From: a virus
Taxonomy: Duplodnaviria > Heunggongvirae > Uroviricota > Caudoviricetes
Direction: 5' to 3' (one strand)
Length of the DNA: 6,159 nucleotides
IMG/VR virus record: IMGVR_UViG_2531839236_000025
The notes beneath the pieces are model-generated. The model was given only the letters and a program-made list of their open reading frames with translations. It had not been told where the DNA came from and made no database searches. This document shows positions 5,543-5,683 of the stretch, piece by piece (positions within the stretch are counted from its first letter, which is position 1; each line of letters starts with the position of its first letter). The position numbers and the translations under genes were made by a program.

Positions 5543-5683
5543 TTACTCAAAAAAAAGCGACGAGAAAATCAGCATCAACGAGCAATAAGCGCCAATACGT
5601 GATAACAAATGGCAGCCATATTTATCTGCAGTATAAGCAATGGACAGGATAACCACACCAGAAACCGTCAGCATAAAATCCAT
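5543..5683 (-). CDS. small hydrophobic protein (46 aa), candidate membrane peptide; not in supplied ORF track
   Basis: Manually translated: MDFMLTVSGVVILSIAYTADKYGCHLLSRIGAYCSLMLIFSSLFFE, stop TAA at 5545..5543. Two hydrophobic stretches. GGGGAAG SD-like sequence 5 nt upstream of the ATG at 5683..5681; in-frame upstream stop at 5749..5747. A 35-aa antisense plus-strand ORF (5608-5715) has no SD. Confidence 0.3.
   Translation of the reverse strand: MDFMLTVSGVVILSIAYTADKYGCHLLSRIGAYCSLMLIFSSLFFE

Follow-up and report, generated by a model that had tools for sequence, protein, structure and literature searches.

A 46-codon gene, ECs1538, on an optional AT-rich cassette of lambda-like Escherichia coli prophages and its predicted two-helix membrane protein

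Does a hydrophobic open reading frame (ORF) of only 46 codons, lying between the lysis and packaging modules of a lambda-like Escherichia coli prophage, encode a genuine protein, and what kind of protein would it be? The question is raised by IMG/VR record IMGVR_UViG_2531839236_000025 (Caudoviricetes), a stretch of 6,159 nucleotides (nt), referred to here in its entirety as the window, which represents the late region of such a prophage. An earlier note on this DNA had singled out the ORF as untracked and had proposed a small membrane protein, a type I toxin-like peptide or a holin/antiholin-like accessory. The word untracked is accurate insofar as the ORF falls under a 60-residue cut-off, and inaccurate with respect to public annotation: the RefSeq Prokaryotic Genome Annotation Pipeline (PGAP) calls exactly this coding sequence (CDS) as hypothetical protein WP_000347013.1, and in E. 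coli O157:H7 Sakai the ORF is identical to ECs1538 (ECs_1538, NP_309565.1) of prophage Sp6, between ECs_1536 and the HNH/terminase genes. The gene is already known, having been annotated since the Sakai genome and having its translation recorded in a published table. The evidence assembled below favors, at a probability of roughly two in three, a genuine gene for a two-helix inner-membrane protein that has its own promoter in lysogens, is also carried on the late transcript after induction, and acts through a membrane partner.

The ORF itself is present as the earlier note described it, on the minus strand, beginning with ATG (the reverse complement of 5681-5683), ending with TAA (5543-5545) and preceded at 5 nt by a Shine-Dalgarno (SD)-like GGGGAAG. 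In S4 Table of Hücker et al. (PMC5597208), an SD for ECs1538 is likewise listed, at 4 bp upstream and with a dG of -3.6. The encoded protein, MDFMLTVSGVVILSIAYTADKYGCHLLSRIGAYCSLMLIFSSLFFE, contains the two hydrophobic segments that had been pointed out, with Kyte-Doolittle 19-residue window means of 1.64 and 1.60, and its grand average of hydropathy (GRAVY) of 1.11 is the highest among ATG-started ORFs of at least 40 residues in the window. When the local 470 bp were shuffled with dinucleotide composition preserved, an ATG-started ORF of at least 46 residues arose in 930 of 2000 shuffles, and an equally hydrophobic one in 63 of 2000. Taken alone, the ORF thus lies within chance, and the case for a gene rests on comparative and published experimental evidence.

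The comparative evidence comes from 85 copies (84 fetched loci plus the window) and from three alleles. Allele A is the window sequence, allele B reads MDFM(L/Q)TVSGVVILFIAYTADKYGYHLLSRIGAYCSVMLIFSSLFFD, and allele C, which shares about 81% nucleotide identity with allele A, reads MGLMLTIAGVIVLFIACNADKYGYPLLSRIGAYCALILIFSSLFF(E). The frame is open in 85 of 85 copies and in all three alleles, and the GGGGAA ahead of the start is preserved in each of them, so that frame, start codon (ATG or GTG) and SD persist through approximately 19% nucleotide divergence. Alleles A and C are set apart by 12 synonymous and 13 non-synonymous changes (dN/dS about 0.28; binomial p=0.008 for the synonymous excess), while the other five frames contain 2-5 stops each and show no synonymous excess. 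Eight of the 13 replacements score at least 0 in BLOSUM62, V/I, S/A and M/I among them, and replacements between alleles mostly exchange hydrophobic or small residues; the segment ADKYG..LLSRIGAYC is unchanged between A and C save for residues 24-25, despite several silent changes. Within allele A, four synonymous variants, one non-synonymous variant (T18I) and one ATG-to-GTG change that retains a start codon were observed. Rare variants comprise an in-frame insertion of one codon (P0006) and frameshifted or truncated forms (P0008 and P0010). Judging from these comparisons, the reading frame is conserved under purifying selection.

The only indel-prone site of the ORF is a run of T residues at its 3' end, whose length determines the final residues of the protein. 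Slippage in this run affects only the last 1-6 residues because stops are closely spaced in the other frames. Protein forms corresponding to T8 and T9 are each found on about 1000 contigs and the T7 form on 207; this polymorphism may be real variation or, in part, sequencing error.

The experimental evidence was drawn from the strand-specific RNA-seq and Ribo-seq study of Sakai by Hücker et al. (2017, PLoS One, PMC5597208), in which no inducer is mentioned and in which ECs1538 was one of 250 short annotated control genes. In LB, S2 Table gives 57.6 reads per kilobase per million mapped reads (RPKM) for RNA and 26.1 RPKM for footprints, with a ribosome coverage value (RCV) of 0.46 and footprint coverage of 0.98; these values exceed all three thresholds that the study set for translation (RPKM>=1, coverage>=0.5 and RCV>=0.25). 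The corresponding figures are 32.7 and 7.3 RPKM, 0.23 and 0.81 in brain heart infusion (BHI), and 2.1 and 0.6 RPKM, 0.29 and 0.13 in BHI with 4% NaCl at 14 °C (S2 Table). A machine-learning verdict of "real" is recorded for the gene in S4 Table of the same study. The mRNA of ECs1538 therefore carries ribosomes in uninduced cultures, and according to the published tables the gene is one of the better-expressed short prophage genes in uninduced cells. Loss of the frame or lack of translation, which the earlier note had named as grounds for abandoning the ORF, was accordingly looked for, and neither was found in the three alleles, the 85 copies or the Ribo-seq coverage of 0.98.

The published RNA levels also bear on how the gene is transcribed. 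In LB, the holin gene ECs1530 reaches 8.4 RPKM, ECs1536 10.1 and ECs1537 3.0 (PMC5597208, S2 Table), so that ECs1538 RNA is about 6-19 times that of the upstream late-strand ORFs and about 7 times that of the holin gene in uninduced cells. ECs1537 is an old ORF call (5825-6043) within the GC-rich element described below, and stops 142 nt ahead of the ATG of ECs1538; the step from 3.0 to 57.6 RPKM falls near a candidate promoter. An increase of this size, roughly 6- to 19-fold, immediately ahead of the ORF points to a promoter within the AT-rich stretch and speaks against late transcript leaking from cells that were induced spontaneously. The candidate is a sigma-70-like site found by consensus scan. 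Its -10 hexamer matches at five of six positions in every allele, the sequence being GATAAT in C and TATTAT in the other two. Between this site and the SD, in the presumed 5' untranslated region (UTR), lies an AT-rich block of 35 nt, which is identical in alleles A and C despite approximately 20% divergence around it and has one change in B. The block holds a near-perfect inverted repeat, TTAACA-TAT-TGATAA (5736-5750), and is overlapped by a promoter-like site directed away from the ORF; the block may serve as an operator or as a divergent promoter. A YlcI operator was looked for, but the inverted repeat is unsupported as a shared operator, its pattern occurring once in the window. Folding of the mRNA region yielded z-scores of just -1.9 and -2.3.

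With regard to the protein, an AlphaFold2 model built from a four-sequence alignment comprises a helix at residues 2-21, a turn at YGC and a second helix at 25-44 (mean pLDDT 85.5). The predicted fold is a helical hairpin, in which two hydrophobic helices of about 20 residues are joined by the conserved turn DKYG and both segments reach the hydropathy threshold of 1.6. S9 Table of PMC5597208 likewise gives a prediction of an inner-membrane protein with two transmembrane (TM) helices. Together with the mostly hydrophobic or small replacements among alleles, these predictions agree with the small membrane protein proposed in the earlier note. Charges lie at D2 at the N-terminus, D20, K21, H25 and R29 in and after the loop, and E46 plus the carboxylate at the C-terminus, a distribution that, under the positive-inside rule, suggests a loop-in, ends-out topology. 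The protein ends in ...SSLFFE or ...SSLFF without a charged C-terminal tail, and a single ATG is preceded by an SD. The conserved G31-A32-x-x-S/A35 would be a small-xxx-small motif of the type typical of helix packing. A Foldseek comparison of the hairpin model with the viral models of BFVD returned just generic hairpins of uncharacterised small phage proteins (E>=0.55) and was uninformative.

Searches for relatives were consistently negative beyond the family itself. With alleles A and C as queries, a word-indexed search of 5.8 billion proteins returned none outside the E. coli family, and a hidden Markov model (HMM) search of 1.84 billion representatives found no relatives beyond it; other HMM matches were long proteins hit in several short stretches and were taken as non-specific. 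Back-translated patterns and a degenerate core motif found nothing outside the E. coli family in GTDB at one genome per species, and tblastn against 50,697 phage records gave only two matches, both identical copies. For the window allele, no Pfam family was matched at E<=1, which is consistent with the impression recorded in the earlier note that the peptide is unlike Hok, Ldr, TisB, Ibs and ShoB. NCBIfam and PADLOC gave zero matches at E<=10, and PHROGs nothing significant, the best being an unannotated PHROG at E=0.046 for allele C only; Rfam showed no RNA family in the ORF region. In public protein collections, the protein is found on more than 1000 contigs and is named "hypothetical protein" every time.

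The ORF region is 100% identical to many O157:H7, O26 and O121 chromosomes. Of 5426 complete E. coli genomes, 734 have the 301-nt region around the ORF, at 788 places in all, with copies at least 97.7% identical in all but one genome. Carriers include O157:H7, O26, O103, O111, O121, O145 and O104:H4; in Sakai, prophage Sp6 also bears type III effector genes. The O157:H7 strain PV15-279 matches a 501-bp query stretch (5400-5900) at 100%, and its prophage has a portal gene annotated as frameshifted and an endolysin gene split by an IS1203 insertion (456-2710 and 10350-12196 of locus L001) while retaining the small ORF; this prophage copy is probably defective.

The variable nature of the locus is evident from a comparison with the CD306 prophage, which has the same HNH/terminase module, ylcI gene and GC-rich element, and which lacks approximately 5376-5845 and carries about 50 unrelated bases instead (Table 1). 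The piece absent from CD306 consists of the last 12 ylcI codons of the window (a replacement 3' tail), the ORF and the AT-rich upstream region, and GC content is 25-42% across 5500-5850 against 48-64% in flanking windows. Past the window edge, the minus strand continues with a 225-nt gene and then the Rz/Rz1 spanin genes, so that the ORF is co-oriented with the late operon; it converges on the ylcI-like gene at a distance of 129 nt, and a terminator scan of this gap found nothing convincing on either strand, with one weak site at 5432-5418. The block from ylcI through the ORF to the GC-rich element (5219-6025) adjoins HK97-type (HNH) or lambda-type (Nu1/A) packaging modules as well as differing lysis-region variants, and in allele B the ORF and its upstream region are retained next to a different downstream module without ylcI.

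Table 1. Positions of the ORF, its putative signals and neighboring features in the window (position 1 is the first letter of the 6,159-nt stretch).
Feature	Position	Strand	Basis or detail
ECs1538 / WP_000347013.1 CDS, 46 residues	5543..5683, TAA stop included	-	PGAP annotation, open frame, Ribo-seq
T8 homopolymer at the 3' end of the CDS	5549..5556	-	T8 gives ...FFE and stop; T9 gives ...FF and stop; T7 gives ...FLSKLY and stop
SD-like GGGGAAG	5689..5695	-	5 nt before the ORF ATG
AT-rich block of 35 nt, GTTTATTTTACTTTTAACATATTGATAATAAAAAG, in the presumed 5' UTR between promoter candidate and SD	5728..5762	-	Allele comparison
Sigma-70-like promoter candidate, TTTTCA-17 nt-TATTAT, predicted start near 5766	5773..5801	-	Consensus scan
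Promoter-like site TTTACA-17 nt-TATGTT, pointing away from the ORF	5720-5748	+	Consensus scan; overlaps the 35-nt block
AT-rich stretch	about 5700-5830		
AT-rich moron-like cassette, about 470 bp	5376..5845		Alignment with CD306, GC trough
GC-rich conserved element	5838-6025		
YlcI/YnfO family (DUF3950) gene, 61 residues, ECs1539	5228-5413	+	Pfam PF13132 (E=8.9e-20), annotation
HNH endonuclease gene	4821-5186	-	
Small terminase gene	3968-4531	-	
Large terminase gene	2310-3971	-	
Capsid/prohead-protease fusion gene, 645 residues	309-2246	-	Peptidase_S78 at residues 48-152, Phage_capsid at residues 386-635

The same slot is occupied by other genes elsewhere: borD, ybcV and ybcW in DLP12 of K-12, a bor-like gene in phage 434, and, in phage 21, bor, a hydrophilic 45-residue ORF (locus L095, 457-594) and a gene for a protein with a TonB C-terminal domain. 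These genes, as well as lambda bor, share with ECs1538 the variable position between the spanin genes and ylcI/cos/terminase, a slot that, judging from its contents, behaves as an accessory-gene hot spot. Neither in sequence nor in product are they related to it; Bor is a lipoprotein of the outer membrane and its gene lies on the opposite strand, and YbcW and the 45-residue product of phage 21 are hydrophilic. K-12 ybcW (locus L005, 3881-4087) was tried as a counterpart of the ORF and set aside as unrelated in sequence and hydrophilic.

The favored reading, a lysogen-expressed gene for a two-helix inner-membrane protein, can be set out as follows. The cassette that houses ECs1538 is optional and AT-rich and lies, in lambda-like E. 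coli prophages, where the lysis module gives way to the DNA-packaging module; the apparent promoter and ribosome-binding site of the gene would allow the protein to be made in ordinary lysogens without induction. The protein would insert in the inner membrane with its basic loop (K21 and R29) facing the cytoplasm and its two short ends on the outer side, and may work by packing its helices against a membrane protein of host or phage origin, through the face formed by G31-A32-x-x-S/A35. AcrZ, MgtS, MgrB, CydX and KdpF are single-helix proteins encoded on the chromosome that bind larger membrane proteins, their partners being known. They resemble ECs1538 in having 50 residues or fewer with little beyond TM helices, and a comparable partner-binding mode would apply to it; ECs1538 differs from them in being prophage-borne and a predicted two-helix hairpin.

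Phage morons are independent accessory transcription units, defined by extra DNA of odd base composition with its own expression from a repressed prophage (PMC3594210). The ECs1538 cassette fits this description because it is extra DNA relative to CD306, deviates in GC content, and gives rise to RNA and footprints in uninduced LB and BHI cultures in the published data, and it has a candidate promoter; the exception is a terminator of its own, which was not found. The closest comparison is with gp15 of HK97, a superinfection exclusion protein (Cumby et al. 2012, as summarised in PMC3594210). As far as that summary describes gp15, both are single small genes added to a lambdoid late region relative to its relatives, both deviate in base composition and are expressed from the repressed prophage, and both have an inner-membrane product, which in the case of ECs1538 is a predicted one. 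There are also clear differences from the gp15 described there: no sequence relationship is apparent, as searches gave nothing outside the ECs1538 family; gp15 lies in the tail operon, whereas ECs1538 lies between the lysis and packaging modules; and gp15 has YebO-family relatives in bacterial chromosomes, whereas ECs1538 has none outside E. coli prophages. By analogy alone, the likeliest role for ECs1538 would be to benefit its lysogen, for example by keeping out the DNA of superinfecting phages, although this more specific role is tentative and rather doubtful.

Several observations weigh against a translated membrane protein with its own promoter. Membrane insertion and topology are predictions, from which the arrangement described above is suggested. 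The promoter is a consensus match only (9 of 12 positions), and the predictor of Hücker et al. placed a promoter for ECs1538 248 bp upstream (PMC5597208). Neither the terminator scan nor S4 Table of that study, which lists no predicted terminator, provides one for the ORF, leaving one classical moron feature missing. The Ribo-seq depth is modest, at an estimated 20 or so reads per LB replicate (from RPKM and library sizes), and the RCV of 0.46 is below the mean of 1.55 for short annotated genes (PMC5597208). O157 carries several copies of the GC-rich element and of the neighboring late genes, which makes their RPKM values, and with them the apparent RNA step, sensitive to the treatment of multi-mapping reads. 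Close alleles may be loosely constrained, as A and B differ by five non-synonymous changes and one synonymous change, and the selection test hangs on one divergent allele of a family that is restricted to E. coli and low in diversity. The coding strand is T-rich (60 of 135 bases), which alone favors hydrophobic codons. Finally, ECs1538, its WP accession and its peptide are unnamed in the main texts searched, and nothing there bears on function.

Some of these observations are shared with the view that the ORF is a functionless chance product of T-rich, horizontally spread DNA, riding on a cassette kept for its promoter, an RNA or the ylcI tail, with its translation being noise. ORFs of this length arise in 46% of cassette shuffles, the T-rich coding strand promotes hydrophobic codons, homologues are found only within E. 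coli, the predominance of near-identical copies (at least 97.7%) could mean recent spread rather than conservation, non-synonymous changes outnumber synonymous ones between A and B, the frame is disrupted in P0008 and P0010, and the non-coding 35-nt block is better conserved than the ORF. Such noise would nevertheless have to account for a synonymous excess confined to the ORF frame (p=0.008), for a hydrophobicity matched in only 3% of shuffles, and for the survival of frame, start codon and SD through about 19% divergence. Indels are moreover absent from the ORF except in the terminal T-run, where close stops buffer their effect, the rare insertion in P0006 amounts to one codon in frame, and footprints span 98% of the ORF, all of which render a chance ORF improbable. 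It is less probable still that the protein is a lysis accessory, that is, a holin-, antiholin- or pinholin-like protein with two TM segments, made from the late transcript and tuning lysis timing. Like the class II holins and pinholins (S21; PF04971, Phage_holin_2_1), ECs1538 has two predicted TM helices and lies on the late strand of a lambdoid prophage, downstream of the holin, endolysin and Rz/Rz1 genes, where Q-antiterminated read-through would, given lambdoid late-operon organisation, transcribe it after induction. However, the prophage already has its own class II holin (PF04971), ECs1538 is shorter (46 against about 70 residues), and no holin family is matched in Pfam or PHROGs. Holin architecture includes a charged, basic cytoplasmic C-terminal domain and a dual-start motif, whereas ECs1538 ends in FFE or FF and has no dual start. 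Nor is the ORF beside the endolysin gene, from which it is separated by an antirepressor gene, Rz/Rz1, the 225-nt gene and a conserved non-coding element of 190 nt. The cassette is optional, as CD306 has none despite the same head module and flanks, and the ORF is present in only 734 genomes, compared with 4143 for the flanking GC-rich element; in uninduced cells, ORF RNA is about seven times that of the holin gene. The holin/antiholin-like character raised in the earlier note accordingly finds little support.

The type I toxin-like character raised there fares no better, and a toxin-antitoxin-like module, in which a membrane-damaging toxin is held down by antisense RNA from ylcI read-through or by a short RNA from 5720-5748, is likewise quite unlikely. 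The resemblance to the E. coli type I toxins (Hok/Gef, Ldr, TisB, Ibs, ShoB, DinQ and ZorO) lies in a length under 60 residues, strong hydrophobicity (46 residues, GRAVY 1.11), a predicted inner-membrane location and possible antisense transcription. The convergent ylcI-like gene, 129 nt away, is not separated from the ORF by a convincing terminator on either strand, and the two are similarly transcribed in Sakai (57.6 RPKM for the ORF and 45.6 for ECs1539 in LB; PMC5597208, S2 Table). The analogous K-12 pair ybcW-ylcI is listed as a convergent excludon (PMC12288877). The cassette separates ylcI from the GC-rich element, which normally comes immediately after that gene, the plus-strand promoter-like site lies in the 35-nt block that is perfectly conserved between A and C, and the RCV of 0.46 is under the short-gene mean. 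On the other hand, no toxin family is matched in Pfam (E<=1), PADLOC or NCBIfam, no antisense RNA was identified and no small RNA of the region is in Rfam, and allele B keeps the ORF without a ylcI neighbor. The ORF protein has two predicted helices, whereas the known E. coli type I toxins have one. Footprints over 98% of the ORF in exponential LB cultures would be unexpected for a tightly silenced toxin, and translation during normal, uninduced growth speaks against strong toxicity at native levels. A broader proposal combines several of these elements: ECs1538 would found a new family of small prophage membrane proteins, restricted to E. coli, that shield the lysogen at the inner membrane through superinfection exclusion or abortive infection; overlapping, convergent transcription with the DUF3950/ylcI gene would control its output, and the cassette would form an excludon-type switch between ylcI and its normal 3' flank. 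This remains speculative and has a low likelihood.

The flanking GC-rich element and the ylcI gene show features of their own. The element, about 190 nt long and without a convincing ORF, is found at 10,806 places in 4143 of 5426 complete E. coli genomes, with 691 of these places on plasmids, and also in 398 phage records, among them 434, 21, mEp460 and Stx1/Stx2 phages, and it directly follows the DUF3950/ylcI gene in phage 434 and CD306. Highly conserved blocks flank a variable hairpin, the consensus fold being more stable on the late strand (-39.5 vs -24.4 kcal/mol) with few compensatory pairs; the element could be a structured RNA, the 3' end of ylcI or a conserved recombination sequence at a module boundary. 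ECs1537, which lies inside it, has a Ribo-seq coverage of only 0.18 (PMC5597208). In the YlcI/YnfO family, the core RNIRFPN..IEQIN.AL..KGSGNFSAWVIEACRR is invariant, while C-terminal tails are highly variable and overall lengths range from about 50 to 107 residues, a pattern that fits recombination breakpoints within the 3' end of the gene. The gene is antisense to the late operon and adjoins cos in lambda-type relatives. An AlphaFold2 monomer of YlcI has an unstructured N-terminus and two helices (pLDDT 70); the model is compatible with a ribbon-helix-helix dimer, but neither sequence nor fold gave a significant PDB match, so that this assignment is a guess only. At the other end of the window, the capsid/prohead-protease fusion is labelled "phage major capsid protein" by RefSeq and "phage prohead protease" in the Sakai record.

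ECs1538 is not a new discovery, and its interest lies in its presence in roughly one-seventh of complete E. coli genomes and in the class to which it belongs. Small prophage proteins of its kind are rarely studied, and HK97 gp15, once studied, altered phage susceptibility. In this context, ECs1538 represents an ordinary but reasonable target for work on small proteins.

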